Positions 669 to 27,308 of a DNA stretch of 64,000 nt are shown piece after piece (position 1 is the stretch's first letter; each line of letters starts with the position of its first letter). A program made the translations under genes and the position numbers. This DNA comes from an uncultured Acidobacteriota bacterium (GTDB lineage: Bacteria; Acidobacteriota; Blastocatellia; Pyrinomonadales; Pyrinomonadaceae): NCBI GenBank assembly GCA_963726075.1, contig CAVSAQ010000002.1, positions 607,868-671,867 of the forward strand. The letters run 5' to 3'. Under the pieces are notes generated by a model. That model had not been told where the DNA came from, did no database searches, and saw nothing but the letters and a program-made list of their open reading frames with translations.

Positions 669-1547
669 TCAACTAGAGACGCACACCTTGATAAATGCTT
701 GAGCGGCGAGCGTGAGATGTTTGTCCTTTCGATGGATTATTCTCAACTCGCGACTAGCATTCAGACCTTCAACTTTTACGGCAGTCAACAGCTTGGCTTG
801 AAGTTCTGTTTCCACTGCGAACTTCGACACGAAAGCTATTCCCAGCCCAGCTTGCACAGCTTGTTTCACGGCCCCTGGATTGTCCGTCTCCATCACTGTA
901 GTCAAGCGAAGATTCCACTCTCGAAGATTAGAATCGACAAGAGCCTGAGTCGCAGATCCCTGCTCGCGAAAAACGAATCGCTCCGCTGCCAGGTCTTTGG
1001 GCCGAATACTTTTCCTGCCAGCAAACCGATGGTTAACTGGCACGATTAGCGCGAGTTCATCAGTCCGCCAGGGTATGACCTCCACCTCAGTACCGATAAG
1101 GTGTCCGCCAACAAAACCAAAGTCGAACTCGTTCTTAACGATTAAATCTTCCACTTGACGAGTGTCTTTTATGGCGACGTAGACTTCGATCTTTGGGTGC
1201 TGGCGCTTAAACTCGGCAACCAGTTTGGGCACGAGATAAATCCCCGGCGTTGTACTGGCTCCGATTCTCAACGAACCTCGCTCCAATCCCTTCAGCTCCT
1301 GCATCGCCACTTGAGCGTCTTCGAATGCAGCTACTATCCGTCTGGCGTTTCGCTCGAGAACTAATCCAGCCTCAGTCAGTGAGATCTTTTTTCCTGTTTG
1401 CTCGAACAGCTTCATGCCCAGCTCTTCCTGAAGCAGGCGAATGCGAACTGACACACTGGGCTGGCTGAGGTGCATTTCTTCCCCGGCGCGAGTGAAATTC
1501 AGATGTCGCGCGACTGCGAGAAAGACTTCGAGATCACGGGAGTCCAT
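669..1547 (-). CDS. LysR-family transcriptional regulator
   Basis: N-terminal HTH (FTRAGEEMHLSQPSVSVRIRLLQEELG) plus LysR substrate-binding-like C-terminus; divergent from CMD genes. Confidence 0.9.
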   Translation of the reverse strand: MDSRDLEVFLAVARHLNFTRAGEEMHLSQPSVSVRIRLLQEELGMKLFEQTGKKISLTEAGLVLERNARRIVAAFEDAQVAMQELKGLERGSLRIGASTTPGIYLVPKLVAEFKRQHPKIEVYVAIKDTRQVEDLIVKNEFDFGFVGGHLIGTEVEVIPWRTDELALIVPVNHRFAGRKSIRPKDLAAERFVFREQGSATQALVDSNLREWNLRLTTVMETDNPGAVKQAVQAGLGIAFVSKFAVETELQAKLLTAVKVEGLNASRELRIIHRKDKHLTLAAQAFIKVCVSS

Positions 1548-4867: not shown

Positions 4868-6462
4868 GCGAGAGGTTAGAAAGCGCCGATCGATCTTTCG
4901 TTGAACGTCTTGTGAACGGACCGGTCGGATTTAGGCACCGTCTCGAGCGTCTCGGTCCGGTGTTCATAAAAATAGGACAGTTCCTTGCGTTGCGCCCTGA
5001 CTTATTACCTCAAGAGTACTGCGACGAATTGATGTATTTGACTGATCGAGTTCCTGTCTTCCCGTGGGAACAAGCGAAGGCGATTTTGAAAGCCGAATTT
5101 AAGCAGGAACCCGGAAAGATTTTTGACTACATCAATCCCAATCCAGTCGCCGCGGGTTCTTTAGCACAGACCCATGTCGCTCGTTTGAGAGATGGCAGGG
5201 AAGTCGCGGTCAAAATCCAGCGACCGAATCTAGAAACTCAGGTTTTGCGCGATCTGAAACGAGCCAGACGATTGGCTCGGCTGCTCCAGATGAGTAGCCC
5301 GTCCTTCATCGTCTCACCAAACGAGGTCGTGGCCGAGTTCGCAGAGTGGCTCAGACAGGAGACAGACTTCAATCACGAACTAAACAATTTAACTCGCTTA
5401 TATAAGCTCGCCACCAACAGCAAATTTCAAAAAATACCCGAGCCATTTCCTGAATTCAGCAGTGCTAGAGTTCTAACGAGTGAGTATATCCGTGGGGTTC
5501 CCGTTACCGAGTTGTTACATGCCTTGCGCGCCCAAGGCTCTAACGGAAATCAAACAAGTAAAAGATTCGGCGTAGATCACGACCGGCTCGCCAGAAATCT
5601 GCTCTGGAGTACGCTGGTCCAGATTTTTCGGTACCAATTTTTCCACGCTGACTTGCATCCGGGAAACTTGATGGCTTTATCCGGCGACGTCGTGGGATTC
5701 GTTGACTTCGGGCTTTGTTCGGAACTTGATGAAACCGTCCGCGAACGGCAAATAAGTTACATTTCGGCGTTCTACAGTGGCAATCGCGATCGAATGTTCA
5801 AGGCCGTAACCGATTTTCTTATCGCGACTGAAGAGACAGACATAGATTCTTTTCGTGCGGATTTCATGGCTGAAACTAGCATGCGCGCACCGGTGGATCA
5901 TCCCAGTCATAATGGATCGCGCACTGAAAGAGATCGCCCTTCCATTACGCAGAGCATGGTTGCAATGTTGCGAGCTGCACGCCGCAACAGGTTGCAAGTG
6001 CCCACCAGAGTTCTCTCAATGTACAAGGCATTGCTTACCGCCGAGACAGTTGCTCACGAGCTTGGGACAAATGCTGATTTACGATCGGTGGGCCGGAATT
6101 TCTTTTTCGAGCTGCAGCGCGACGACATCATATCCAGCGTTGAACCGGATAACCTGGAGACATCAGTCCTCAGTACGGTGGCTTTGTTGCGCGATTCACC
6201 TGGTCAACTTCAACAAATCCTCACCGAATTAGCCGAGGGTAAATTTGAACTCAAAGTGAATGTTTCTGAAGGTGCCAAAGTTAGCCGGATAAAGAACCGG
6301 CGCCTGCGGTTGTTAGTGACTTCGATACTTTCGGTCTGCGTTGCCCTGCTTCTCGCAGCGCCTCGTTTGCCGGCAGTGTTCGACGACTCAAGGTGGCCGC
6401 TCTGGGTGGCATTGATCCTGCTCTACGTTTCAATTCTATTTCAATGGAGGCGTCTGAAGTGA
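4864..6462 (+). CDS. ABC1/UbiB-family atypical kinase with C-terminal TM segments
   Basis: IKIGQFLALRPD, AAGSLAQTHVA, HADLHPGN motifs; ATGA start/stop overlap with upstream paralogue. Confidence 0.85.
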   Translation: MSERLESADRSFVERLVNGPVGFRHRLERLGPVFIKIGQFLALRPDLLPQEYCDELMYLTDRVPVFPWEQAKAILKAEFKQEPGKIFDYINPNPVAAGSLAQTHVARLRDGREVAVKIQRPNLETQVLRDLKRARRLARLLQMSSPSFIVSPNEVVAEFAEWLRQETDFNHELNNLTRLYKLATNSKFQKIPEPFPEFSSARVLTSEYIRGVPVTELLHALRAQGSNGNQTSKRFGVDHDRLARNLLWSTLVQIFRYQFFHADLHPGNLMALSGDVVGFVDFGLCSELDETVRERQISYISAFYSGNRDRMFKAVTDFLIATEETDIDSFRADFMAETSMRAPVDHPSHNGSRTERDRPSITQSMVAMLRAARRNRLQVPTRVLSMYKALLTAETVAHELGTNADLRSVGRNFFFELQRDDIISSVEPDNLETSVLSTVALLRDSPGQLQQILTELAEGKFELKVNVSEGAKVSRIKNRRLRLLVTSILSVCVALLLAAPRLPAVFDDSRWPLWVALILLYVSILFQWRRLK

Positions 6463-8795: not shown

Positions 8796-9180
8796 AGATG
8801 ACCGAATGCGGAATTGGCAAAGGCGCTTCGGCTCTGAATGACAGCACAGGAGAGGTTGTGTAGTAACCCTTGTTTCGAACTCGCGGCGGTAACGGGAATT
8901 GCAGCGGTAGTTCAGCTGAGCATCTAGTTAGGAACTTCGCAGCGTTTATTACGATCCTCAGACGGCGGGCGGAATGTGGATTTCCATAGCATTCGACCGG
9001 GTTAAAGCTCCTAGCGCGCTTGCGACAAACCTACCCCCGAGCAGCGAGAATTGAACGAGTTGTCCAGCAAAAGATCTCGCTCGCTTTTTGTTTTATGACG
9101 TGATAGAGTCCGCGCCTCGTTTTTGCGAGACGCTTCAAGCCCTTGCCAGTGAACCGCATAAGGTTCCAAAGGAGTCTGTC

Positions 9181-10047
9181 ATGCGTAGAAGATTACTCCC
9201 GCTTCTTGCTCTAATAGTAGCAATCCTTTTTCTTGGAGCCTGCAAAAGCAGCACCGACATGGCACCGCAGCAAAGGCTACGTATGACCATGATCCCGACC
9301 ACTGATCCCGGCAAAGTTGTGCGTGAAAGCCAACCCCTTGTGTCCTACCTTGAGAAAGAGACAGGGGCCAAGATCGAGTTAACAGTGCCTACCAACTACG
9401 CGGCTGCGGTTGAGGCGATCGCTTACGATCAAGTGGACATCGCCTACCTGGGTGGCTTTACGTATGTGCAAGCATCGAAACGCGCAGGGGTCTTGCCGCT
9501 TGTCCAACGTGAGCGCGATCAGAACTTTCACAGTGTCTTCATCACTCAGCAGGATTCGAAAATTGCCAGTCTGGATGACCTCAAGGGCCACACATTCGCC
9601 TTCGGCGATGTTAACTCCACTTCGGGGCACCTGATGCCTGAGTACTTCATGCGTGAAGCAAAAGTAGACCCGGACGTCATCGCCCGCGCGATCTACTCAG
9701 GCGGCCACGACGCAACGGCGCTCGCCGTGGCCAATCGGAAAGTCGACGCGGGGGCTTTGGATGAAACTGTATATCAGCGGATGACAAAGGACGGCAAAGT
9801 TGATCCTGCACAGGTTAGGATCTTTTACACTACACCGCCTTTCTACGACTACATCTGGGTTGCGCGAAAGGGGCTCGACCCGAAGCTCGCTGACGCATTC
9901 AGCGCGGCGTTCTTGAAACTCGACGCTAACAACCCGACACACAAACCTATCCTAGATCTGTTGGTCGCGAACAAATACATCAAGGCGGAAGATCGTAATT
10001 ATGACAAACTCCGCCAAGCTGCAAGAGATTCAGGATTGTTAAAGTGA
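9181..10047 (+). CDS. phnD: phosphonate/phosphite ABC transporter substrate-binding lipoprotein
   Basis: Lipoprotein signal (LFLGAC), PhnD-like motifs (YLGGFTYV, TSGHLMP); RBS AAAGGAG before ATG 9181. Confidence 0.8.
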   Translation: MRRRLLPLLALIVAILFLGACKSSTDMAPQQRLRMTMIPTTDPGKVVRESQPLVSYLEKETGAKIELTVPTNYAAAVEAIAYDQVDIAYLGGFTYVQASKRAGVLPLVQRERDQNFHSVFITQQDSKIASLDDLKGHTFAFGDVNSTSGHLMPEYFMREAKVDPDVIARAIYSGGHDATALAVANRKVDAGALDETVYQRMTKDGKVDPAQVRIFYTTPPFYDYIWVARKGLDPKLADAFSAAFLKLDANNPTHKPILDLLVANKYIKAEDRNYDKLRQAARDSGLLK

Positions 10048-10886
10048 TCTATTCGCTCCAGGACGTTAGTAAGACTTATTCGACGTCACGTGCAGTAGTG
10101 CACGCGCTCGATGGATTTACGTTCGATGCTGAGCCGGGCGAACGCATTGCACTCCTCGGCCCTTCAGGCGCCGGTAAGACCACGCTTTTTCGTTTGCTCA
10201 ACGCCACGTTGCGTCCCACAAGCGGCAGTCTGCGTTTCGACAGCACGGATGTGAGTGCCATGTCGGGGCGCGAACTGCGGTCTATGCGCCGACGGATTGG
10301 TACGATTTACCAGCAATACTACCTTGTTCCATCCCTGTCCGTGCTTGAAAACACCCTATGTGGCAGGCTTGGTTACTGGTCATTTCTTCATACGATTCGC
10401 AGTGCTATGCAACCTGCGAAGGAAGAACGGGAACAGGCAATGGCGGCTCTGGAAGCGGTCGGTCTCGCGGACAAGCAATGCTGTCGCGCTGACGAACTTT
10501 CAGGAGGTCAGCAGCAACGCCTCGCCATTGCTCGTGTCCTCATGCAGGATCCGGAAGTGATCCTGGCGGATGAGCCGTTCGCCTCGCTGGACCCCAGTTT
10601 AAAGGAAACGCTGGCCTCGCTGCTTCTTGTCCTCGTTACTAATAGCAAGCGGACTTTGGTTGCGACCTTGCACGATGTCGAAACGGCATTGCGATTTTTT
10701 CCGCGCATAATTGCGTTGCGCGAGGGGCGCGTTGCATTCGATAAGCCAGCTTCTGAAGTCGATCGCCCAACGCTCGAGGCGCTCTACTCCGACAACTCAG
10801 AACCGAGTAAGGCTGCGCCTGAGGTTAGTAAAACGCAGGTAGCCGAGAATATTGAGCCCAAATGTGCACCAGTCTGCACGCCGTAG
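10044..10886 (+). CDS. phnC: phosphonate ABC transporter ATP-binding protein
   Basis: Walker A GPSGAGKTT, signature LSGGQQQR, Walker B ILADEP; start overlaps phnD stop. Confidence 0.85.
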   Translation: MIYSLQDVSKTYSTSRAVVHALDGFTFDAEPGERIALLGPSGAGKTTLFRLLNATLRPTSGSLRFDSTDVSAMSGRELRSMRRRIGTIYQQYYLVPSLSVLENTLCGRLGYWSFLHTIRSAMQPAKEEREQAMAALEAVGLADKQCCRADELSGGQQQRLAIARVLMQDPEVILADEPFASLDPSLKETLASLLLVLVTNSKRTLVATLHDVETALRFFPRIIALREGRVAFDKPASEVDRPTLEALYSDNSEPSKAAPEVSKTQVAENIEPKCAPVCTP

Positions 10887-12690
10887 CAATGAGTACTTCA
10901 CGCACCACGATAACTTGATTAGTGCTCGCCGCCTTACCGCGGCGATTGCGTTCAGCGTAGTACTCATCCTCTGCTGGCGCTTTGCTGAAATACGCCCCAC
11001 CGCTTTTTTTGAGCCCGGCGCAGCGGCGGGTGTGTGGAAATTCGTTCGCGCTCTTTTTCCACCAGATCTATCTCCCAGCTTCCTTCGAATTGTCGCGGCG
11101 GCTACGCTGCAAACCCTCGCTATAGCTATTGCCGGCACCGCGCTTTCGGTTGTCATCGGTCTTCCGCTTGCTTTCCTGGCCACGCCCACCTTGTGGCAAC
11201 GCGGCGTCCTGGTCGCAGGAGATCCACCCAGCGCAGCTCGATTCTTCTTGTCTGGGGTTAGTCGCGTGACGCGTGCACTGTTTGGTTTTTTGCGTGCAGT
11301 GCCCGATCTGATGTGGGGATTACTGTTCGTGGTAGCTGTCGGACTTGGCTCAGTTGCTGGAACGCTCGCCCTTGCCGTCAGCTATGGCGGCGTGCTTGGA
11401 CGAGTTTATGCGGATGTATTCGAAGATGTTGATCCTCGCGCGCTTGAGGCCTTGCATGGAGTTGGCGCTACACGTTTTCAAGTGTTCCTGCGCGCGATTT
11501 GGCCTCAGGCGGTTCCTAGCGTTACCGGATACACGATTTATTCATTCGAGTGTTGCGTGCGTGCTGCTTCAGTCCTGGGTTTTATCGGCGCCGGCGGCAT
11601 CGGCTACGAGATCAATCTCTCCATGAGAATGTTCAATTACGGCGAGGTATTGACGCTCGTCACCAGCCTGCTTGTGTTGGTTGCCGGCACAGATGCAGTA
11701 AGCCGGTTCGTGCGCCGCCGCTTGAACGCCAATGTTCCAGCAGCTTTCTTAGCTCGTAGGGAGATACGAGGCGCGCGCATTCTATTCCGGCGGCCGATTT
11801 GGTCCAGGCGTTCGCCAAGCGGAATCGTAACTTTTACAGCTCTCCTTGTAGTTGGTTGGAGCTTCTACGCAACGGGTTTCTTCAGTAGTGGTTTACTTGA
11901 CCTTGGGCTGCCGAGTCGAGTCGTCAGACTTGTTGGAGAAATGTTCCCTCCGGATCTTGACCTTGATTTTCTGAGGTCATTGCTTTTCCCTCTTCTTCAA
12001 ACGATAGGAATCTCGGTAATTGGCACCTTGATGGGAATTGTCATCAGCGTTGGCTTGTCTCTCCCTGCTGCGTCAACACTGATCTTTAGTGACAGGGACT
12101 CTGCCGGCAGGAGGTCATGGTTCGGCCAGGCAACGCGCTGGGCGATCTATTTTTCGGCGCGACTGATGCTCAACGTCCTCCGCTCGATCCCGGAACTGGT
12201 TTGGGTTCTCGTTTGTATTATCGCTGTAGGTTTAGGGCCATTTGCGGGCACGCTGGCAATCGGTCTGCACACAGGTGGCGTACTCGGCAAACTCTATGCA
12301 GAGACGCTCGAAGAAGTTCCTTCCCGACCAATTGAAGCTTTACGAGCAAATGGCGCACGGTCACTTCAGATTCTGGTCTGGGGAATTTGGCCATTATTAC
12401 GACCGACGCTGATCAGTTACACCGTCCTTCGTTGGGAGACGAACCTGCGCGTCTCCACGATCCTCGGTTTGGTCGGAGGTGGCGGTCTGGGTCAGGCAAT
12501 CTTCAACAATATTCAGCTCGGGTTCTACCAACGCATCGCGGTACTAATTGCGATCATATATGCCCTGGTCCTGACAACTAACTGGATTGGGGATCGGATG
12601 CGGCGGCGCCCTGCTTCCTTCGATTGGAAGTTTCAAAACGTGGGACGTCGGTTTCGAATTAAAGAACCCCAGCGTCACATGTCCACCTGA
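10852..12690 (+). CDS. phnE: phosphonate ABC transporter permease, fused double PhnE-type domain
   Basis: Two tandem permease halves each with the EA..GA.. loop (LEALHGVGATRFQ and IEALRANGARSLQ). Confidence 0.75.
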   Translation: MSPNVHQSARRSNEYFTHHDNLISARRLTAAIAFSVVLILCWRFAEIRPTAFFEPGAAAGVWKFVRALFPPDLSPSFLRIVAAATLQTLAIAIAGTALSVVIGLPLAFLATPTLWQRGVLVAGDPPSAARFFLSGVSRVTRALFGFLRAVPDLMWGLLFVVAVGLGSVAGTLALAVSYGGVLGRVYADVFEDVDPRALEALHGVGATRFQVFLRAIWPQAVPSVTGYTIYSFECCVRAASVLGFIGAGGIGYEINLSMRMFNYGEVLTLVTSLLVLVAGTDAVSRFVRRRLNANVPAAFLARREIRGARILFRRPIWSRRSPSGIVTFTALLVVGWSFYATGFFSSGLLDLGLPSRVVRLVGEMFPPDLDLDFLRSLLFPLLQTIGISVIGTLMGIVISVGLSLPAASTLIFSDRDSAGRRSWFGQATRWAIYFSARLMLNVLRSIPELVWVLVCIIAVGLGPFAGTLAIGLHTGGVLGKLYAETLEEVPSRPIEALRANGARSLQILVWGIWPLLRPTLISYTVLRWETNLRVSTILGLVGGGGLGQAIFNNIQLGFYQRIAVLIAIIYALVLTTNWIGDRMRRRPASFDWKFQNVGRRFRIKEPQRHMST

Positions 12691-12853: not shown

Positions 12854-14356
12854 ATGAAACGCACACTCTTATTAGCAACCCTACTCTTCGTTGTAGGAGC
12901 TTTTGCCACGATCGGGTCGGCGCAAACGGCTGAACAGAACTCAACTGCCAAGACGCGCTCTAACCTGACTGCTTCAGATTCAAACCCTACTAAAGTCTCA
13001 AGCGTCGACAATGGCGGCGGCATGCCGTCTGAGGTTGAGGCTCTGAAAAGTCGAATCGAGGAGCTAGAAAAACAAAACCGCACCGTTTTGGAAATGCTGA
13101 CAAGGGTTCAAACACAGCTAGAAACTATGAATCGCTCAACAACCGATGGCAATCGGTCAGCATCATCGGCTTCTCCTCCGGCACCGACAGCCGAAGCTGC
13201 GACCGTTAACAGCCAACCTGCTGCCACTAACAAAAACCAACCTGTTAGTTGGGGAGAGTTGATTAGTGAAGGCAACAAGATCAAATTGTATGGCTTTCTT
13301 AGGCTTGACTTGATTGCTGATTCACAGCGCCCAAACAACGGGCAGGCGATCCTGTTCATTACATCTCCCGACCCGCGGATTGGCACCGACAACGGGAACT
13401 TCACCATACATCCTCGTCTCACGCGCTTGGGAATTGATTGGAATGGCCCGCAAATCGCCAAGTTGGGAAACGCAAAGCTTACGGGCAAGCTGGAGACGGA
13501 TTTTCAAAACGGGGGCACGGAGTCTCGTCAAATTATCCGGATTCGTCACGCGTACCTGCGAATGGATTGGAAGAAGTTTTCAATTCTTGGTGGGCAAACT
13601 TGGGATCTATTCTCGCCTCTTTTTCCTACTGTTAATGGCGATACACTTCAATGGAATGCCGGCAACGTCGGCGATCGGCGACCCCAACTCCGCTTCACGT
13701 ATGAACCACCGGTAGGCCGTGGCAAGTTCTCTCTGGCGGGCGCCGTGGCGCTGATGGGAGCTATTGACTCATTAGATCTTGACGTTAACGGAGTGCGGGA
13801 CGGTGAAGAGTCTGCACGACCGCAGATCCAAGGACGCTTCGGATACTCTCGATCCCTTGGCAAAGATCGGGTGCTGAATTTTGGAATATCCGGAGAGTAC
13901 GGGTATTTGAAGACTGCGCGCGCGATCGTAGGCAGGACGGACTTTCGCAGTCAGATTGTAAATGTTGATTTCACAATTCCTGTTACGAGCCGCTTTGGTT
14001 TCAAAGGTGAAGGTTGGTGGGGTCGTAATATGAGTGACGTTCGCGGCGGTGCTGGCCAGGGAATCAATGTCGCGACTGCGAGTGAGATCAGAGGGAGTGG
14101 CGGTTGGATTGAGATTAACGGAAAAGTGTGGCGTTACTTGACCATAAATCCGGGCTTCTCAATTGATGACCCCGTGGACTTTGACATTCCTGTTGGCGGA
14201 CGCACTCGCAATCGCGCATTCTTTGTTGCGAACCGAATCACGCCCGGAGGAAATTTCGTTATTGGCCTTGACTACCTGCGTTGGCAGACAACTTATAAAG
14301 GTTTCTTGCGGGGGAATGATAACCGAGTGAATTTGTTTCTTCAATACAACTTCTAA
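12854..14356 (+). CDS. outer-membrane porin with N-terminal coiled coil (DcaP-like)
   Basis: Signal peptide, coiled coil (EVEALKSRIEELEKQN), beta-barrel-like body (IRIRHAYLRMDW), C-terminal aromatic YNF. Confidence 0.7.
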   Translation: MKRTLLLATLLFVVGAFATIGSAQTAEQNSTAKTRSNLTASDSNPTKVSSVDNGGGMPSEVEALKSRIEELEKQNRTVLEMLTRVQTQLETMNRSTTDGNRSASSASPPAPTAEAATVNSQPAATNKNQPVSWGELISEGNKIKLYGFLRLDLIADSQRPNNGQAILFITSPDPRIGTDNGNFTIHPRLTRLGIDWNGPQIAKLGNAKLTGKLETDFQNGGTESRQIIRIRHAYLRMDWKKFSILGGQTWDLFSPLFPTVNGDTLQWNAGNVGDRRPQLRFTYEPPVGRGKFSLAGAVALMGAIDSLDLDVNGVRDGEESARPQIQGRFGYSRSLGKDRVLNFGISGEYGYLKTARAIVGRTDFRSQIVNVDFTIPVTSRFGFKGEGWWGRNMSDVRGGAGQGINVATASEIRGSGGWIEINGKVWRYLTINPGFSIDDPVDFDIPVGGRTRNRAFFVANRITPGGNFVIGLDYLRWQTTYKGFLRGNDNRVNLFLQYNF

Positions 14357-14580: not shown

Positions 14581-15312
14581 ATGGGCCGCATCCTTGCTTT
14601 TCTCTACGGTGTTGTCAGTTATTTGGTCTTCTTCATCACCTTCCTGTATGCAATAGGTTTCGTCGGAAATGTATTTGTTCCCAAGTCGATCGACTCAGGC
14701 ATGCCTGGTCCGTTCGGTCAGGCACTCGTGATCGACGCGATTCTGCTGGGCCTCTTTGCGATTCCGCATAGCATCATGGCGCGGCCGGGTTTCAAAAACT
14801 GGTGGACGAAAATTGTTCCTCCAGTCGTTGAGCGCAGTACTTACGTTCTCATTTCGAGCCTGCTCTTGGCATTACTTTTCTGGCAATGGCAACCCATCCT
14901 GACCATTATTTGGGACGTGAGGAATCCAATCGGCAGCCTGGTTCTTCAAGGGCTTTTCTGGGCGGGTTGGGCGCTGGTGGTTCTCAGCACATTTCTAATT
15001 AATCACTTCGATCTATTTGGCCTGCGCCAAGTCTATGTGTATCAAGTCGGCAAGCTGTCCGGTGAATCGAAATTCAAGACGCCCAGCTTATACAAGATCG
15101 TTCGTCACCCGCTAATGCTCGGCTTCATCATCGGATTCTGGGCGACACCCAGGATGACATTGGGGCACTTGGTGTTTGCGGTTGCTAATACGGCCTACAT
15201 ACTAATCGCAATTCAATTCGAAGAGCGCGATCTGGTCAACATTCACGGGAATGCTTATGAGGAGTATCGCCGGCGGGTTTCGATGTTGCTGCCGCTGCCA
15301 AAAAAGCGCTGA
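14581..15312 (+). CDS. membrane methyltransferase, ICMT/PEMT-like (MddA-like methanethiol S-methyltransferase family)
   Basis: Multi-TM protein with INHFDLFGLRQV and LYKIVRHPLMLGF motifs typical of this family. Confidence 0.65.
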   Translation: MGRILAFLYGVVSYLVFFITFLYAIGFVGNVFVPKSIDSGMPGPFGQALVIDAILLGLFAIPHSIMARPGFKNWWTKIVPPVVERSTYVLISSLLLALLFWQWQPILTIIWDVRNPIGSLVLQGLFWAGWALVVLSTFLINHFDLFGLRQVYVYQVGKLSGESKFKTPSLYKIVRHPLMLGFIIGFWATPRMTLGHLVFAVANTAYILIAIQFEERDLVNIHGNAYEEYRRRVSMLLPLPKKR

Positions 15313-15345
15313 CCTGTTGGTCGGTGGCTGAGTATTAAGCGGTTT

Positions 15346-15601
15346 CGGCCGAAGGCGTGTTTGAATCTGTGTTGCTGGAGCGAGTTTCATTCCCAACAGT
15401 CAACACGACCACAAATAAGCGTTTCACCAGCCTTCGGGGTTATACAGATTGAGATGTGAAATGACTCCAAACTGGAATCGCGCTTCATAGCGCAGAGGAG
15501 TCAATTCAATGATAAGTAGTACCGATCACAGCAGGGCGTCAAAGAGTCACAGTGAGTTTTCACGCAATCCAGCAACACAGGTTTCAGACACTACCCGGCC
15601 G
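15346..15601. repeat. MITE-like element / long imperfect inverted repeat in selD leader region
   Basis: 34-nt arms 15346..15379 and 15568..15601 (shared CGGCCG...TGAA.CTGTGTTGCTGGA) flank about 190 nt of non-coding sequence. Confidence 0.45.
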
Positions 15602-15700
15602 AATTGTAAGGGGATCGTACTTCCGAAAATTGTTTGACATTACACGGCGAATGGGTGGACTCTTAGTTGTCTAAACTTCGCAGAGGGAGAGGGCAATCTC

Positions 15701-16732
15701 ATGCGTCTCACTGAGATGGTCTCGCGTGCTGGCTGAGCGGCTAAGCTCAGCCCGAGCATACTCGCTCAGGTCTTGAGCGAGCTACCAAGACAGCCATTCA
15801 ACGAGAATCTAATCGTAGGCTTTGAAACAGCCGATGATGCAGGAGTGTATCGTCTCAGAGACGACTTAGCGATTGTGCAGACGCTCGACTTCCTGCCGCC
15901 AATCGTGGACGACCCTCACGACTACGGGCGTATTGCCGCGCTAAATTCAATTAATGATGTTTGGGCTATGGGTGGAACTCCGATTACAGCTATCGCAATC
16001 ACTTGTTTCCCTGAAAATGGTGTCGATCCGGCGATACTCAACGAGATCAACCGTGGCGGTCTTGATACTTTGATGGAGCACGGCATTACTTTGATGGGTG
16101 GTCACAGTGTCCATAACCAGCAAATCATGTTTGGCTATTCAGTAACTGGAGTGATCGATCCGCGAAGAATCGCAACCAACAGTGGGGCGCGTTCGGGCGA
16201 CATCATCGTCCTCACGAAACCGATCGGGACAGGTGTTATCTCAGTGGGTGTCAGAGTCGAAAAAGCGAGTGAAGAAACCGCAGCGGCTTCTTTGTCGACG
16301 ATGTTAATAGCAGGCGATCATGCTGCAGAGCTTATGCGGCAGTTCGATGTTCGCGGAGCTACCGACATTACGGGCTTCGCTTTGATCGGTCACACATGGG
16401 AGATGGCTTGTGCAAGCCGCGTGACTATAGAACTCGATTCGGGTTGTGTGCCGATAATCACCGGAGCGCTGGAGTTGGCCTCGAATGGATTTCTGACGGC
16501 CAGCGACAAAACAAATCGTCAGTACGTCGGTGAAGACATCGTGATTGCTGAATCTGTCAGGCAGGAAATGAGCAATTTGCTATTCGATCCTCAGACGGCT
16601 GGAGGTATGTTGATCTCGATTTCTGCAGATCGCTCGGATGAATTGCTGGGACGTCTCCGCGAAAGGTATCCCCAGGCGACGAAGATTGGACGCGTTCTTG
16701 AGCGTGGCGAGCACTCGATTGTTGTGAAGTGA
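15701..16732 (+). CDS. selD: selenide, water dikinase (selenophosphate synthetase), Sec-containing form (UGA 15734..15736)
   Basis: ATG 15701 gives [29 protein letters not shown] in frame with ORF 15773..16732; UGA sits at the catalytic Cys/Sec of the G(C/U)xxK loop; RBS GGGAGAGGG upstream. Confidence 0.9.
15731..15781 (+). promoter_or_regulatory. candidate SECIS region of selD (two hairpins)
   Basis: GGCTGAGC-GGCTAA-GCTCAGCC (15731..15752, includes the UGA) and CTCGCTCA-GGTCT-TGAGCGAG (15761..15781, perfect 8 bp, GGUCU loop). Confidence 0.55.
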
Positions 16733-16804
16733 GTCGAGGCCTCTGATTCGCAAGCGAAATTAGGTTTCTGTATCGCATTGCTCAGTTGCAGATGGGAAGG
16801 ATTT

Positions 16805-18415
16805 ATGGCTGTCGAGACCCAATCAAGGAAAGCCCTGGCAGAGAATTGTGTTAAATCAAACCTGATTCAACTGTCTCGTCGCAACACTCCTAAACTGAGC
16901 TTTGCAGGAAAAAGAGGCAGCCAAAAGGCGATAAGGGCACTCTTTATTAACCCAGAGTTACCGGTTACCTATTGGGGCTTCCAGCATTCCACTTCATTTG
17001 AAGGTCACCGTTCGGCTTCCCCACCGCTGGGCCTGGTGACGATAGCCGCCATGCTCCCGGGGGATTGGCAGCGACGACTGGTGGATATGAACCTCCGAGC
17101 ACTTGGGACTGCTGACTTGGAATGGGCGGATATTGTGTTCGTCACCGGCATGATTGTCCAAAAGGAATCACTCCATCACGTCGTCGATTTGTGCAAGCAG
17201 TATGGGAAACGTGTAGTAGTTGGCGGACCGTACATTACGACCAGTCCGGAGACTCTCCCGCACGCGGATCACATCTTTCTTGGGGAAGCCGAGACTACCT
17301 TTCCGGAATTCCTGCGCGACCTGAAAGACGGCCAACCGAAACGGATCTACAAGGCGAATGAACGACCGCCACTTTCGCTGGTGCCTTTACCGGACATAAG
17401 CCTCCTTGATCTAAAGCAATACAGCTTCATGTCGTTGCAATACTCGCGCGGCTGCCCCTTCAACTGCGAGTTCTGCGACATCATTGAGATTTACGGTCGC
17501 GTTCCTCGCACCAAGGGAAACGAGCAGGTGATTGCTGAGTTGGACGCACTCCTCCGAGCCGGTTGGTACGGGATAGTCTTCATCGTTGATGACAACTTTA
17601 TCGGCAACAAGCGCAACGTCAAGCGTTTGCTCCCAGATTTGATCGACTGGTCCGAACGACATCACCACCCTTTCTCTTTCGCGACTGAGGCGAGCGTGAA
17701 TCTCGCAGACGACGACGACTTGCTGGAGATGATGCGGCGCGCGGGTTTCCGCCACGTATTTATTGGCATTGAAACACCGGTTGAGGCGTCTCTGAGGGAG
17801 ACACAGAAAAAGCAGAACACGCATCGAGATCTTCTCGAATCAGTCAAGAAAGTTCAGAGCTATGGCATTGAAGTAATGGCAGGTTTTATCGTTGGATTCG
17901 ACAATGATCCTGACGATATTTTCGAGCGCCAAATCAACTTCATAAGGGAAAGCGCCATCCCAATGGCAATCGTCAGTTTATTAACTGCTCTCCCGGAGAC
18001 ACAACTTTGGCGCAGGCTTAACAAGGAGGGAAGGCTTCTCACGGAAAGCACGGGCAATCTTACCGATAGCACGCTAAACTTTGTCCCCAGGATGGACGCG
18101 TCGCGCCTCGTTGATGGGTACAAGATGATTATGCGCACGATCTATAGCCCTGGTGAGTATTACGAGCGTGTCCTTAATTGTCTGGCGCAGCTGCGACGAT
18201 ATAGGCGGGCACCTCGGCGACTCTCACCCGCCGGCGAAATTGCTGCATTGACTCGCGTCGTCGTTAGGCTCGGTATGCGCGGTCACGGGCGGCGCGAGTT
18301 TTGGCGATTCATGAAGCGTGTTTTGGTCTCACATCGCCAAGAGCTACCAAATGCGGTGATGCTGGCCGCAATGGGCCATCACTTCAGAAAGCTTACGGAG
18401 ATATATTGCCGATAA
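16805..18415 (+). CDS. B12-binding-domain radical SAM protein (DUF4070-type C-terminus)
   Basis: N-terminal B12-binding-like region ([13 protein letters not shown]), CxxxCxxC ([13 protein letters not shown]), long C-terminal extension. Confidence 0.85.
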
Positions 18416-18672
18416 GAAACGGCAAGCTCGTATTCTTTTAGCCTTTCGCGCTAGAACTTATGCAGATCGGTTGAATGATCTGATTGGGACGAGAGCAGCG
18501 AGCGAAATTATCGTCGTCCCAAACGCGAAAAGGCTGATTCCAAATCCTAGTGAACGCTAGATGGTGTAAGCTTCGAGTTATCAAGTAAAAATCCGGCATC
18601 ACCTTTTGAGTTGCGATGCGACTGGCTTTCTTAGCTGGCTGAGGCTAGCTCCTCAGCTGAGATGAAAATCAA

Positions 18673-19809
18673 ATGACGCAACACCGATCTCTTCTTACCG
18701 TACTCTGGTTGTTGGCATTTGTTACTTCCAGTTGCGCTCAGACGAAGCAGGAACGTGAACCTGTCGCCGCCGCCCCGCCGCGGCTCATTTGGCAACATGA
18801 CACTGGTGGTTGACTGTTCTCGGTCCCCGCGGTCGCGGAGGATACGGTCTTCGTCGGTTCATGTGCCGGAATTTTCTATGCGTTCAACAAAGCTACGGGG
18901 GCGGTGCGGTGGAGTTATGACATTGGGAAAGATGGAAAGCAAAAGAGCTTTCATGGGAACCCGTTAATTACCGATGATTTGATTCTGATTGGCACTGATC
19001 TTAACTGTGTGCCCGATGGCGTTGGGCACGTCTACGCTTTTGAAAGAAGCACCGGCAAAGTGCGCTGGAAGTATCAAACAACCAGTGTCCCTACAGACAT
19101 CCTCCGTATCGGCCCGAACGTTTATTTCGGCAGCTTCCAGGATAATTGGTACGCAGTTGCGCTGCGGACTGGTGAGTTGGTCTGGAAATTTTCAACCGGC
19201 TCACCAAATGAAAGCTGCGACATGATCAAATCGCCGGTTGCTGATGACCGGCATCTTTACATCACCGGAATGGATGGAATTGTCTACTCGCTTGAGGCCG
19301 CATCCGGTCGCGTCGCCTGGAAACGAAAGCTGCCCGCGGCTCCCTCGACTGGTTTGGCGCTCAAGGGCAAGACGCTTTTTGTCGGCGCCAGCAACAATCA
19401 GATTTATCGACTGAACGCCGAGACGGGAACCACCGTTGCCGAGTTCCCGGTAGTGGCGATGCCTTTTGGAAGAATCACGTGGACCGCCAACGCACTGCTG
19501 TTGTTTTTAGACAATCGCTCGGAACGTGCGGGATACGTTGTTACAGTCGATCCGGATCTAAAGAAAGCGCGATGGCAGCAGTCATCTGCGAATTGGAGAT
19601 CCGAACGTCCTCACGCCTGGGGGGATCTGGTCGTGGCCGGTAACTGTCGCGGTGAGGTAGAAGCATTTCAGGCTTCTGACGGTGCGCCACAGTGGCAGCT
19701 GAATCTGAAGGGCTGTATTTCGAGCATTGGGAGTTCCGAAAAGAGAATGTTTGTTGGCGTGCAGGAGGGAACGCTTTACGCGTATGAACTCTTGTCGCCA
19801 AAGCAATAG
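18673..19809 (+). CDS. PQQ-like (BamB-type) beta-propeller lipoprotein with in-frame UGA 18811..18813 (candidate selenoprotein; alternatively a nonsense pseudogene)
   Basis: ATG 18673 encodes lipoprotein signal MTQHRSLLTVLWLLAFVTSSC; the frame continues through TGA with no other stop into ORF 18904..19809; repeated W...G..YA...TG..W propeller blades. Confidence 0.6.
18824..18842 (+). promoter_or_regulatory. candidate bacterial SECIS hairpin
   Basis: TCC-CCGC-GGTC-GCGG-A-GGA: 7 bp with one bulged A, GGUC loop at 18831..18834, 17 nt after UGA (same spacing and apex as at 2283). Confidence 0.55.
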
Positions 19810-19834
19810 CAACTTAAGCAAGAGGAGAATACAA

Positions 19835-20311
19835 ATGAAACGTTTAGGATTAGTAGTCGCAATCGCAATCGCGGTCGTTGGCTTCGCCATCGGCCAAAAC
19901 ATGAGCCACTCATCAGATCATGGCTTCTTCCAAACAGCGGACCTGAAGTGGACGGACGGACCGGCATCTCTGTCAAAGGGAGCGAAGGTCGCTTTGATGG
20001 AAGGTAATCCGGCTCAGGAAGGTCCATTCACGATGCGCTTGCATCTACCGGACGGTTTTAAGATTCAGCCGCATTCGCATCCGGCCGTTGAGCACGTCAC
20101 CGTGATCTCCGGCACGTTCAATCTCGGCATGGGCGAGAAGTTTGACACGTCTGCGGGCCGCGCCCTGCCCGCCGGCTCTTTTGCTTTCATGCAGCCCGGT
20201 ATGAAGCACTTCGCCTGGGCGAAGGGAGAGACTGTGGTTCAGGTGCACGGGATCGGCCCCTGGAAAATTAATTACGTGAATCCAGCGGACGATCCGAGAA
20301 ATCAGAAGTAG
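19835..20311 (+). CDS. secreted cupin-domain protein
   Basis: Signal peptide, cupin motifs (HSHPAVEHVTVISG ... MKHF); 25 nt after the propeller gene, RBS AGAGGAG. Confidence 0.7.
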   Translation: MKRLGLVVAIAIAVVGFAIGQNMSHSSDHGFFQTADLKWTDGPASLSKGAKVALMEGNPAQEGPFTMRLHLPDGFKIQPHSHPAVEHVTVISGTFNLGMGEKFDTSAGRALPAGSFAFMQPGMKHFAWAKGETVVQVHGIGPWKINYVNPADDPRNQK

Positions 20312-20499
20312 TCGCTTGCGATTGCAAAAGCGCTGCTGCTGATGGCTGCTGTTGGAAAGCGACGGAGAAAAATCCGTCCCCCAAACGTCCCCCAGCAATA
20401 CGCAAATCAGGCAATGCATGCACGGGTATGCAGCGCATGCACGTTGATTTTTCCTGAGCCGTTTTGTAAGTTGTGAAAATAAAGGAGCGAAACTTTTGA

Positions 20500-20544
20500 T
20501 TCCCAAGCTGAAAGTTGCGAGTTCGAGCCTCGTCACCCGCTCCA
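20500..20544 (+). other. tRNA-Gly 3' fragment (anticodon loop to CCA), probable integration-site remnant
   Basis: TTCCCAAGCT...GCGAGTTCGAGCCTCGT-CACCCGC-T-CCA resembles a bacterial tRNA-Gly 3' half (T-arm, acceptor CCCGC, discriminator U); no matching 5' half upstream. Confidence 0.5.
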
Positions 20545-20756
20545 AATTCCTCAGTAATTTCGTATCTCAATTTTCGAACGTTAGAGAAACGTTAGAAACG
20601 TCTCGCAAACGTCCGGCAGAGTCTCTCTGCGTAACTGTCAGGCTCCAGAAGTAAATTGATAATGTCTTCAGGTAGGTGATTCGCAAGCATCAATATCCTG
20701 GCAGGTCAAAATTTGCTCAGCTTGATGACAAGGGGCACACCCAAAATTTCAGACGA

Positions 20757-24310: not shown

Positions 24311-24889
24311 ATGAAGCGTATGGGACTCTTTCACATCTTAGCGATGGCCGCAGTGTTGGCGTTGTGGTGTGTGTCGGCGACAGCGCAGGAGATCAAGTTT
24401 AATTTCATGCCCGGGACCGATTTTTCGAAATACCGCACCTATAAGTGGGTGCGCGTTCCGAAAGCCGAATATCCCAATCAAATCCTCGATACGCAAATTA
24501 TGCAGGCCATCGACGCCCAGCTGTCTATAAAAGGCCTGGCCAAGACCGACGGCGAAGCTCCGGATCTCTATGTCGCGTACCAAGCGGCGGTAAACCAGGA
24601 GAAGCAATGGAATTCGTACAGTACTGACATGGGCGGGTTTGGCTATGGCCGATGGGGCGGCTGGGGAGGATATGGCGGCGGTATGTCAACCACGACTACC
24701 ACGAGTGAGACGATAAATATTGGCACCTTGAATGTAGACATCTACGATGTGGCCGCGAAGAACCAGATTTGGCGCGGCGCGGCGACCAAGACGCTCGGTT
24801 CGGGCAAAGATCCATCCAAAGTCCAGAGGAACATTAATAAGGCCATGGAGAAACTTTTCAAGAAATATCCTCCCCCAGCGAAGAATTAA
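24311..24889 (+). CDS. DUF4136-like secreted/lipoprotein with Gly/Trp-rich insert
   Basis: Signal peptide; FSKYRTYKW and DLYV motifs typical of DUF4136; GGFGYGRWGGWGGYGGG insert. Confidence 0.55.
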   Translation: MKRMGLFHILAMAAVLALWCVSATAQEIKFNFMPGTDFSKYRTYKWVRVPKAEYPNQILDTQIMQAIDAQLSIKGLAKTDGEAPDLYVAYQAAVNQEKQWNSYSTDMGGFGYGRWGGWGGYGGGMSTTTTTSETINIGTLNVDIYDVAAKNQIWRGAATKTLGSGKDPSKVQRNINKAMEKLFKKYPPPAKN

Positions 24890-25028
24890 GTCGGTTGTGT
24901 GGCCGTTCGTGGAAGACAGCCGGCCAGGGCTCGATGACGGCAGCCGCAAGTGGCTGATCCTGTTGTTGTCGCTACTCCAACAGGCGACCGTCAGGCCGCT
25001 CAACTCTTTCGTTGGACTTGCTGCGACC

Positions 25029-27308
25029 ATGCGACAGTTGTTCATCGGCACTCTCCTTTTTATTCTCCCTACACTAGTACTTGCTCAAAACACGCGTCCC
25101 CTACCGCAACGGCGTCAGGCCAAGCGGTCGAATCAAGTCAGAAACTCGGCTCACGTGCGTGACTGGGAAAATCGCGTGATGTCCCGCGTGCTATCCAACG
25201 ACCCGAAGGTCCGGATAACCGCCGAAGCCGCCCTGGTCCAACGGAGGGAGCGTTCGCTTCCCTTGCTGAGGCGACTCCTCAACCATGGCGATGAAGATCT
25301 GGATCAAAGGACTTTTAAGATCATCCAGCGGATTGGTCCACGGGCCATTCCGCTGCTGGTGGAACTGCTTCGGCATGACGACGTCTCTCTCCGGCGCAGC
25401 GCTCTTAATGAATTGATTGACCTGGTGCCCGATACGGAACCGATTCAACCGGCGTTGAGGCGGGCTCTGAAAGACGAGGATTCGATAGTTGTGGGTGATG
25501 CCGCACGTGCCTTGGGCGCTTTGGGCCCTAAGGCGAGTCCTTCGGTACGCGCTCTGGTTCAGACTCTCTCGCACGACGATCCATACGTTCGCATTTACGT
25601 GGCTGAGGCCTTGGCCTCCATCGGTCCGAAGGCGCGCGCGGCGACCAAAGACCTCGCCAGAGCGCTGAGCGATCCGATTCCCGGTGTCCGTTGGGCGGCG
25701 TGTGAGGCTCTCGCAAGCATTGGCCCGGCCGCGCAGTCCGCAGTGCCGCAGTTGATCGAAGCTCTGAAGGATGAATTCCTCTATGTGCGCATCTTCGCGG
25801 CTGGTGCACTGGGAAGCATCCAACCGAGGACACAGACGGCAGTTGAGGCGCTGAGAGCGGCCGCAAACGATCCCGCGATGCGTGACGAAGTGTTGTGGGC
25901 GTTGAATCGAATCGCCGGCGTCGAGTCCGGACAGACTGTCGTCTCAACCCGCATATCCTCCCCCACTCCTGCGCCCCAACCTGCGACGACAGTGGCCCCA
26001 ACGGGCAATCCCCCGGTTGAGTGGAATATCACCACGGGGAAGAACATCGTCTGGAGCGTCGAATTGGGAAACGAGACGTTTGGGAGTCCGGTAGTTGCCG
26101 GCAATTTGGTCTATGTGGGTACCGACAACGACAGAAAAATGAACCCCGCCTTCCAGGAAGAGTCCGGCGTGCTCATGGCTTTTCGGATTACGGATGGCGC
26201 GTTCCTTTGGCAGGACGTGGCCCCGCGAGTTGAGCGCGGACTGCGGGAATTTCTGCTGCCTTCGACGACTAGCGCACCGTATGTGGAAGGTAACCGTTTG
26301 TACTACGTCACCGCTGAGTGCCAACTTCGTTGCCTCGACACGCAGGGGTTTCTCGACGACGGGAACGTTGGCCCATTTCGAGAAGAGGTCTTCAAGGACC
26401 GTGCTGCGGCCGATATCGTCTGGGAACTGGACATGGCCCGCTTGGGTGTCTATCCGCATGAAGCCTGCAACAGCGAGGTTCTGCCTGTGGGTAATCTACT
26501 GGTGGTCTCTACTTCCAACGGCCAGAATGAAGGCCACACGCGCGTCCCATCGCCGCGCGCCCCAAGTCTGATCGCCGTGAACAAACACTCGGGCGAAGTC
26601 GTCTGGCGTGCGATGGGCGCGGGCGATCAGGTTTTGCATGGCCAGTGGTCCAGCCCGGTGGCGGCAAATGTCAACGGACGCATGCAGGTGCTCTTCGGCG
26701 GAGGAGATGGCTGGCTGCGCGCTTACGACGCAGCGGCGGGCCGAGAAGTCTGGCGATTCGACGGCAATCCGAAAGACGCCCGCTTTCTTCCGCGCCCCGG
26801 CGTACTTTCGCGCAGCGCTATCATTGCTTCACCGGCGTTCGCCGACGGCCGCGTCTTCATCGCGATGGGGCAGAGTCCAGGCCACGGCGATGGACCTTCT
26901 CTGATTCATGCCGTCAGTCCCAACGGCCAGGGAGAAGTCACCGAGAGCAGACTCCTCTGGACTTCTCGCGAGGTGGGCCGCGTGGTTGGCACGCCCATCG
27001 TGAAAGACGGTCTGCTGTACGTTGGGGACCTGGGCGGAACGATTCATTGTCTGGACGCGACAACCGGCGCAACAGTCTGGAAGCACGACACGTTCGAGGC
27101 CATCTGGGGTTGCCTCCTGCTGGCCGGCGACCGCCTTTACGTTGGGAACGCGGCCGGCAGCATGACCGTTTTACGTGCCGGACGGCGAAAGGAATTGCTG
27201 GCGCAGATCGAAATGGATGCGCCGCTCTATTCGCGTCCGGCGGTGAGCGGCGATGCGCTTTACTTGGCCACTGCCAGCCGCTTGTACCTTATCGCGGCAA
27301 GGCCTTGA
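25029..27308 (+). CDS. secreted HEAT-repeat plus PQQ-like beta-propeller protein
   Basis: Signal peptide; repeated HEAT units (D..VR..AA.ALG.IGP.A); C-terminal propeller blades (G..VW). Confidence 0.75.
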   Translation: MRQLFIGTLLFILPTLVLAQNTRPLPQRRQAKRSNQVRNSAHVRDWENRVMSRVLSNDPKVRITAEAALVQRRERSLPLLRRLLNHGDEDLDQRTFKIIQRIGPRAIPLLVELLRHDDVSLRRSALNELIDLVPDTEPIQPALRRALKDEDSIVVGDAARALGALGPKASPSVRALVQTLSHDDPYVRIYVAEALASIGPKARAATKDLARALSDPIPGVRWAACEALASIGPAAQSAVPQLIEALKDEFLYVRIFAAGALGSIQPRTQTAVEALRAAANDPAMRDEVLWALNRIAGVESGQTVVSTRISSPTPAPQPATTVAPTGNPPVEWNITTGKNIVWSVELGNETFGSPVVAGNLVYVGTDNDRKMNPAFQEESGVLMAFRITDGAFLWQDVAPRVERGLREFLLPSTTSAPYVEGNRLYYVTAECQLRCLDTQGFLDDGNVGPFREEVFKDRAAADIVWELDMARLGVYPHEACNSEVLPVGNLLVVSTSNGQNEGHTRVPSPRAPSLIAVNKHSGEVVWRAMGAGDQVLHGQWSSPVAANVNGRMQVLFGGGDGWLRAYDAAAGREVWRFDGNPKDARFLPRPGVLSRSAIIASPAFADGRVFIAMGQSPGHGDGPSLIHAVSPNGQGEVTESRLLWTSREVGRVVGTPIVKDGLLYVGDLGGTIHCLDATTGATVWKHDTFEAIWGCLLLAGDRLYVGNAAGSMTVLRAGRRKELLAQIEMDAPLYSRPAVSGDALYLATASRLYLIAARP

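Follow-up and report, generated by a model that had tools for sequence, protein, structure and literature searches.

The locus described here lies on a 64,000-nt window of DNA (the whole stretch that was analysed, on which all coordinates below are counted), and the genes of main interest occupy positions 14581 to 20544. On one strand, these are a gene for a membrane methyltransferase of the MddA family, a selenocysteine (Sec) form of selD, a gene for a B12-binding radical S-adenosylmethionine (SAM) protein, a gene for an exported beta-propeller lipoprotein that contains an in-frame TGA, and a gene for a secreted cupin, followed by a repeat element that carries the 3' end of a tRNA-Gly (Table 1). 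A first-pass annotation of the stretch had set out the same arrangement, and its gene order, coordinates and spacings were all reproduced exactly, including the short distances of 72 nt between selD and the radical SAM gene and 25 nt between the propeller and cupin genes, and the gap of 257 nt upstream of the propeller gene. Loci or contigs fetched from relatives are denoted by L-numbers, and homologues of the propeller protein by P-numbers.

On the evidence of comparative sequence analysis, the propeller gene encodes a genuine selenoprotein. The context sample consisted of 80 metagenomic loci with homologues 57–75% identical to the propeller; codon 47 is covered in 79 of these, and is TGA in all 79. 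The 45–50 codons upstream of the TGA stay in frame across the homologues and encode a conserved lipoprotein-type signal peptide whose last residue, a Cys, is invariant (...S-x-S-C-A-Q), then a linker and the Sec motif W-x-Y-[DE]-T-G-G-U-[VIL]-F-S-x-P, which stands at the start of blade 1. The in-frame TGA was also read directly in the DNA of two distant homologues, L170 and L171 (42 and 36% identity, respectively), and in two further distant members a 38-codon open reading frame (ORF) abuts the called start.

A 7-bp hairpin begins ten nucleotides past the propeller TGA. It extends from +14 to +31, and its loop, at +21 to +24, is invariably GGUC (positions counted from the U of UGA). Amongst 58 distinct sequences, 90.4% of the cells are paired and compensatory changes occur in four of the seven pairs; none of 500 shuffles matches the observed values. 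Several of the changes in the hairpin also alter the encoded residues (Ala/Ala to Thr/Val), a sign that the RNA itself is under selection. In Escherichia coli fdhF, a hairpin likewise begins about 10 nt past the UGA and has GGUC in its apical loop.

In four full-length homologues (P0278, P0288, P0325 and P0390), residue 47 is Cys in place of Sec. When 1.84 billion cluster representatives were searched exhaustively with HMMER, 434 matched at E <= 1e-30; residues 47 and 64 were compared in 66 representative clusters drawn from the best 150 of these. Co-variation is perfect: the 59 Sec-type and four Cys-type clusters keep Cys64, and the three Ala-type clusters are without it. The 59 Sec-type representatives (30–63% identical) begin right past position 47, and all retain Cys64 and His94. 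The invariant UGA, the co-varying selenocysteine insertion sequence (SECIS)-like hairpin, the Cys homologues and the coupling of Sec or Cys at position 47 with Cys64 together make it very probable that the protein carries out Sec-based redox chemistry in the periplasm, as the first-pass annotation had supposed.

Two side observations concern copies of the propeller in relatives. L163 carries two propeller paralogues on one contig, at 468–1580 and 4341–5021. In L169, a 3.4-kb contig, the Cys-form propeller P0288 (241–1362, minus strand) divergently adjoins an Aminotran_5 gene (1496–2671); this is a single case. The Aminotran_5 family includes cysteine desulfurases and selenocysteine lyases.

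Gene callers shorten members of the Sec-propeller family, and mis-annotation is wide. The 120 best database homologues are called as proteins of 297–333 residues that start past the UGA, many of them exactly at the next residue, and the only name seen for such a homologue at NCBI is 'PQQ-binding-like beta-propeller repeat protein' (PQQ, pyrroloquinoline quinone). No family-specific NCBIfam or Pfam model matches the propeller. A PQQ-, BamB- or propeller-type selenoprotein goes unmentioned in the main text of the sen-cluster preprint discussed below, in selenoproteome reviews of 2022 and 2026, in a 2016 comparative-genomics study, and in deep-Sep and BSepDB. No description of the family was found in NCBIfam, Pfam or the literature, supplementary tables and subscription journals being beyond the search. 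We therefore rate the Sec-propellers as a large selenoprotein family for which no description was found, and consider an earlier description in such tables or journals possible. If the selenoprotein call is true, dozens of clusters at 50% identity have been overlooked in a phylum that is among the most abundant in soil.

In its in-frame UGA, downstream hairpin, Cys homologues and nearby resolving Cys, the propeller resembles bacterial selenoproteins with a Sec/Cys pair. It differs from the thioredoxin-fold and peroxiredoxin-like selenoproteins in being an exported lipoprotein with an eight-bladed PQQ/BamB-like fold, and in place of the CxxU or UxxC helix motif of known selenoproteins it has U-x16-C across a beta-hairpin. 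It also stands apart from them in that Sec forms outnumber Cys forms, by 59 representative clusters to four. Families in which Sec forms predominate in this way are unusual.

The AlphaFold2 model of the propeller spans residues 48–378, with Sec47 outside it, and shows eight blades (predicted local distance difference test score, pLDDT, 90). In a Foldseek comparison the best PDB structural match is BamB (template-modelling (TM) score 0.81–0.85, 16–18% identity), and tetrathionate hydrolase also matches. Together with the conserved lipobox Cys, this describes an eight-bladed propeller lipoprotein, and BamB (YfgL) is likewise a lipoprotein of this fold. Tetrathionate hydrolase, a periplasmic enzyme acting on a chalcogen compound, is also an eight-bladed PQQ-like propeller without PQQ, as is BamB; it has an Asp (the title of the PDB entry names a D325N mutant) where the propeller has its Sec/Cys pair. 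Residues from about 49 to 55 and from 58 to 62 form the first hairpin of the model, so that residue 64 faces residue 49, two residues from Sec47. Sec47 and Cys64 would thus flank the first beta-hairpin and share one face of the propeller. His94, at the start of the first strand in the following blade, would be on this face too. The predicted strand layout is compatible with a selenenylsulfide couple between Sec47 and Cys64.

Table 1. Features of the selenium-associated locus and of the wider window, with positions on the window
Feature	Position	Strand	Basis
LysR-type regulator, 'selenium metabolism-associated'	669..1547	-	NCBIfam NF040786, 250.7 bits (cut-off 250)
selD remnant (second copy), C-terminal residues ~289-334	8932..9067	+	tblastn of window selD
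Periplasmic binding protein of putative selenate/oxyanion ABC importer, PhnD-like	9088..10047	+	TIGR04553, 270 bits (cut-off 250)
ABC transporter ATPase, PhnC-like	10044..10886	+	TIGR02315, 245 bits, under cut-off of 266
Fused double permease, PhnE-like	10852..12690	+	TIGR01097, 424 bits, two matched stretches
Secreted 500-residue protein, possibly an outer-membrane porin	12854..14356	+	Weak DcaP Pfam match
MddA, membrane methanethiol S-methyltransferase family	14581..15312	+	NF045656 equivalog, 377 bits (cut-off 270)
Intergenic sequence of ~310 nt, not in relatives ('MITE-like insert' of the first-pass annotation)	15313..15623	.	Comparison with relatives
SelD, Sec form, in-frame TGA at 15734-15736 (codon 12)	15701..16732	+	TIGR00476, 345 bits
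B12-binding radical SAM protein, DUF4070 tail, 44-residue N-terminal extension	16805..18415	+	Pfam and NCBIfam domains
Gap between radical SAM and propeller genes, 257 nt	18416-18672		
Sec eight-bladed beta-propeller lipoprotein, PQQ_2/BamB-like; TGA at 18811-18813 (Sec47), Cys64, His94	18673..19809	+	
SECIS-like hairpin in propeller mRNA	18824..18842	+	Covariation, 58 distinct sequences
Secreted metal-binding-type cupin, Cupin_7/DUF4437, signal peptide	19835..20311	+	Pfam
Repeat element carrying the 3' 45 nt of tRNA-Gly(CCC) at 20500-20544	20366..20652	+	blastn and alignment

In relatives, the propeller gene belongs to a recurrent operon. Neighbouring genes were clustered across the 80 propeller loci, named with NCBIfam and Pfam models and then mapped. 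A divergent LysR-type regulator of the 'selenium metabolism-associated' family (NF040786, 258 bits; cut-off 250) occurs in 13 of the 23 loci with at least 3.5 kb of upstream sequence, and a cytoplasmic UbiE/ArsM-like methyltransferase is the direct upstream neighbour of the propeller in 19 of 58 loci. SenA (NF041186, 499 bits; cut-off 420) and SenB (TIGR04348, 369 bits; cut-off 300) are encoded beside the propeller in 10–16 of the 80 loci, SenB directly upstream in 10. The cupin gene immediately adjoins the propeller gene on the same strand in 23 loci, 11 times on the upstream side and 12 times on the downstream side; a PDB sequence search with the cupin gave no match. Other members of the operon are MddA, a secreted THAP4-like beta-barrel protein and a secreted HEAT-repeat protein. 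At least one recurrent partner is found in 37 of the 45 loci with both flanks, and selD and the radical SAM gene were each found once.

The first-pass annotation had set the sen genes aside, stating that none of the known partners of selD is present here. The window is indeed without senA and senB (tblastn, E <= 1), but it does contain a TIGR04553 binding protein and an NF040786 regulator, and in relatives SenA and SenB are frequent neighbours of the propeller.

Some further genes were seen near the propeller operon or its counterpart in the window. Secreted TlpA/AhpC-type proteins of the thioredoxin fold occur a few kilobases from the propeller in about four to five loci per cluster (L156:12608–13519, and the L146 and L115 clusters); these are candidate periplasmic reductants for the Sec–Cys couple. 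At 539–658, the window matches the last 40 residues of the secreted THAP4-like protein with 65% identity. This match is convergent with the LysR gene of the window, not divergent from it; in relatives the THAP4-like gene opens the propeller operon.

Upstream of the stretch, the window carries further selenium-associated genes. Its LysR-type regulator is 61% identical to the one adjoining the propeller operons of relatives. The binding protein that belongs to TIGR04553 adjoins PhnC-like and PhnE-like genes, and with them makes up a putative selenate-type ATP-binding cassette (ABC) importer. The importer block (phnD-abc-perm) is also present in L123 and L001, and the PhnC-like ATPase is syntenic in both. 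The porin-like protein encoded next has DcaP as its sole Pfam match (22 bits, under the cut-off of 27); it is 62–73% identical and syntenic in L001, L123 and L166, and is kept between the transporter and MddA. The importer, the porin-like protein, MddA and Sec-type SelD thus make up a block shared with relatives, the whole arrangement being found in L123 and L166. In L123 it is a second copy of selD, with its TGA at codon 12, that stands on this block. In the window, a remnant of selD coding for about 45 C-terminal residues (52–61% identical) immediately precedes the selenate-type ABC genes.

SelD of the window scores well above the TIGR00476 cut-off of 125 bits, and its N-terminal loop reads S-R-A-G-U-A-A-K, the Sec being followed later by a Lys. 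The selD TGA is conserved in four relatives (L001, L123, L166 and L167), and a hairpin with a GGUCU loop is predicted in the mRNA at about 15761–15781. MddA matches its family model over residues 2–238 of 238. The suggestion in the first-pass annotation that MddA might have to do with selenium gains from its position, which recurs: it lies between the selenate-type transporter or porin-like protein and selD in the window, L123 and L166, and adjoins the Sec-propeller or SenB in 12–15 of the 80 propeller loci. Compared with the known MddA family, the protein of the window is a full-length equivalog, and differs in being embedded amongst selenium genes, here and in relatives. Since no literature tying MddA to selenium methylation was found, a selenol substrate is put forward as a hypothesis only.

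The regulator, the selenate-type importer, the selD remnant and the shared block suggest that the genes of the stretch are the right half of a larger selenium locus. We consider it probable that the locus serves to acquire and assimilate selenium, and that it includes a redox propeller working in the periplasm through Sec and Cys, in a Pyrinomonadaceae/Blastocatellia-like soil acidobacterium. The earlier description of the neighbourhood as 'selenium-handling' is borne out by the selenium genes of the window and of relatives. At such a locus, Sec47 and Cys64 of the exported propeller would form a selenenylsulfide/selenol–thiol redox couple, with His94 nearby. The couple would act on periplasmic chalcogen species, and would most likely capture or reduce selenium compounds for uptake or detoxification. 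The cupin may be a metal-dependent partner of the propeller, and MddA may, at the membrane, methylate the selenols or thiols that result. SelD would convert imported selenide to selenophosphate for Sec synthesis, including that of SelD itself and of the propeller; where SenA and SenB are present, selenophosphate could also feed selenoneine synthesis. The propeller–cupin pair would have ended up behind a lineage-specific radical SAM gene.

Several points weigh against this interpretation. The substrate and reaction proposed for the propeller, the cupin and this MddA clade derive from gene context, and the proximity of Sec47 to Cys64 derives from predicted strands in a model that starts at residue 48. 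TIGR04553 is itself merely a 'hypothetical equivalog', and the substrate of the family is only predicted. As well as senA and senB, the window lacks a UbiE/ArsM-like methyltransferase, and the locus does not qualify as a senABC cluster. Neither selA, selB nor a tRNA-Sec was seen in the window, where no search was aimed at selA or selB. Finally, distant Sec forms of the propeller (36–49% identity; L170–L173) lie outside selenium contexts, so the chemistry of the propeller need not have a selenium substrate.

This last observation also fits an alternative in which only regulation links the propeller to selenium. The protein would then be a periplasmic thiol, peroxide or sulfur-compound oxidoreductase, and would be encoded in a selenium operon merely because its synthesis needs selenium. 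The likeness of its fold to that of tetrathionate hydrolase, a periplasmic sulfur enzyme, is in keeping with this, as are the TlpA/AhpC-like redoxins near some propeller copies and the documented substrate of MddA, which by its family name is methanethiol. Such a role explains less readily why the Pyrinomonadaceae-type subfamily partners specifically with selenium genes (SenA, SenB and the selenium-associated LysR, with a selenate-type transporter and selD in the window and L123), or why MddA is embedded between the transporter and selD. We regard co-regulation alone as unlikely, but as the leading alternative.

The first-pass annotation had proposed instead that selD and the B12-binding radical SAM gene form a selenium-chemistry module, with radical or methyl transfer onto a selenium substrate and with the propeller and cupin downstream. 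The radical SAM protein has a B12-binding domain, a CxxxCxxC radical SAM core and a DUF4070 tail. These domains are common to class B radical SAM enzymes such as PhpK, HpnR and BchE, but the protein falls far under the cut-off of every named class B subfamily compared (best PhpK, 87 bits against 600). In a PDB sequence search, which returned generic matches only, the nearest solved structure is 9ccb (E = 6e-11), a radical SAM protein without a specific name. The family is very large and strongly conserved, with more than 8000 matches, and is about 68% identical across Acidobacteriota.

In several relatives the radical SAM gene does follow selD on the same strand, at a distance of 58–224 nt (L001/L002, L164/L165, L166 and L167, as in the window), and in L003 it directly follows MddA. 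The seven sequences with the 44-residue N-terminal extension form one clade in a neighbour-joining tree, and in the six readable contexts of this clade the gene directly upstream is selD (five) or MddA (one). Other genomes thus share the adjacency, yet it is limited to one lineage. A context sample of 80 loci from 80 other species, with radical SAM proteins 46–69% identical to that of the window, was probed by tblastn with every protein of the window neighbourhood; upstream coverage is at least 1.5 kb in 67 of these loci and at least 5 kb in 53. In none of the 80 is selD, MddA, the propeller or the cupin found within 10 kb of the radical SAM gene. Clustering of the neighbouring ORFs revealed no conserved neighbour, the best being a major facilitator superfamily transporter in 12 of 83 loci. 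Of the propeller-centred loci, one in the 80 carries the radical SAM gene, and there on the opposite strand.

A generally conserved partnership with selD is ruled out by these 80 loci, in which there is neither co-occurrence nor a conserved neighbour, and the adjacency is confined to one monophyletic subclade. That subclade also shares an unrelated epimerase downstream on the opposite strand; a second shared neighbour of this sort fits synteny by descent. We read the adjacency of the radical SAM gene and selD as lineage-specific synteny, and not as a core component of the selenium locus. A joint selenium-chemistry module, for which the monophyly, the conserved extension and the close same-strand spacing speak, is accordingly improbable, as is a true recruitment of the radical SAM gene.

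That the propeller is simply the BamB of this organism, an outer-membrane protein assembly lipoprotein, is very improbable: the top structural matches, the lipoprotein signal peptide and a match to Pfam PF13360 agree with it, but the score against TIGR03300 is 107 bits where the cut-off is 285, identity to BamB is low, and BamB has no counterpart to the pair of Sec or Cys47 with Cys64 or to the selenium operon context. BamB is a non-catalytic scaffold.

Read as part of a selenium locus, the propeller operon invites comparison with senABC, the gene cluster for selenoneine, the preprint on which mentions neither a propeller nor a methyltransferase in its main text (Kayrouz et al., bioRxiv 10.1101/2022.04.13.486033). 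In relatives, equivalogs of SenA and SenB are encoded immediately next to the propeller, and the window has SelD, which takes the role of SenC. The acidobacterial clusters differ in the addition of the selenium-associated LysR, the UbiE/ArsM-like methyltransferase, MddA, the Sec-propeller, the cupin and two secreted proteins. Through the tight linkage of the propeller to SenA/SenB, the regulator, the methyltransferases and MddA, these genes become candidate accessories of selenoneine synthesis, a pathway discovered only recently. A literature search for accessory genes of sen clusters turned up none.

A bolder proposal, which we make tentatively and at rather less than an even chance, is that the propeller represents a selenoprotein family both new and abundant, present in soil Acidobacteria as well as other bacteria, lipid-anchored in the periplasm and handling selenium through Sec47 and Cys64. 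With a selenium-dedicated MddA clade, the UbiE/ArsM-like methyltransferase and the secreted cupin, it could constitute an unrecognised branch of selenium metabolism leading from periplasm to cytoplasm, for scavenging, volatilisation or both, and genetically coupled to selenoneine biosynthesis. MddA is a known source of dimethylsulfide from soils. The linkage described here suggests that it may also act in selenium volatilisation.

Scans of the window for promoter and terminator consensus sequences gave matches at chance level and are thus uninformative on co-transcription of these genes.

The sequence between MddA and selD had been described as an insert resembling a miniature inverted-repeat transposable element (MITE). 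It has one inverted repeat, which is internal and 16 nt long (15364–15379 with 15568–15583), and neither the window nor about 170 related loci yielded a second copy, which speaks against a MITE; the sequence is single-copy. The conserved leader of selD comprises only 15624–15700 (about 77 nt), which is retained in L123, L166 and L167, where 15313–15623 is missing.

At the other end of the stretch, the tRNA-Gly 3' fragment noted in the first-pass annotation proved real. ARAGORN found no tRNA in the window, and neither ARAGORN nor Rfam detected the fragment, but positions 20500–20544 match the final 45 nt of a genuine, intact tRNA-Gly(CCC) in L156 (803–877) with 100% identity. The fragment belongs to a repeat of about 180–290 nt, in which a conserved left part of about 130 nt is fused to these 45 nt. 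Besides that of the window, copies are present at L156:7740–8030, 18095–18290 and 18985–19100, and at L155:8287–8482. Those of L156 flank an operon of LysR, methyltransferase, propeller and MddA genes on both sides, which suggests a mobile or recombination-prone cassette border. An integrase island border was also considered; no integrase was found in L156, and this origin is unsupported.

Two other parts of the window deserve mention. The ORFs at 3223–3807 and 3779–4867 overlap and match positions 23–193 and 195–401, respectively, of the UbiB/ABC1 kinase profile; they look like a single gene split by a frameshift. An intact UbiB/ABC1 paralogue follows directly at 4864–6462, and L164 has two intact ABC1 genes in tandem. 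Further downstream, positions 24747–27308 encode an 853-residue protein with HEAT-like repeats and a C-terminal PQQ/BamB-like propeller region, which is weakly similar to the Sec-propeller and in which no in-frame TGA was noted.

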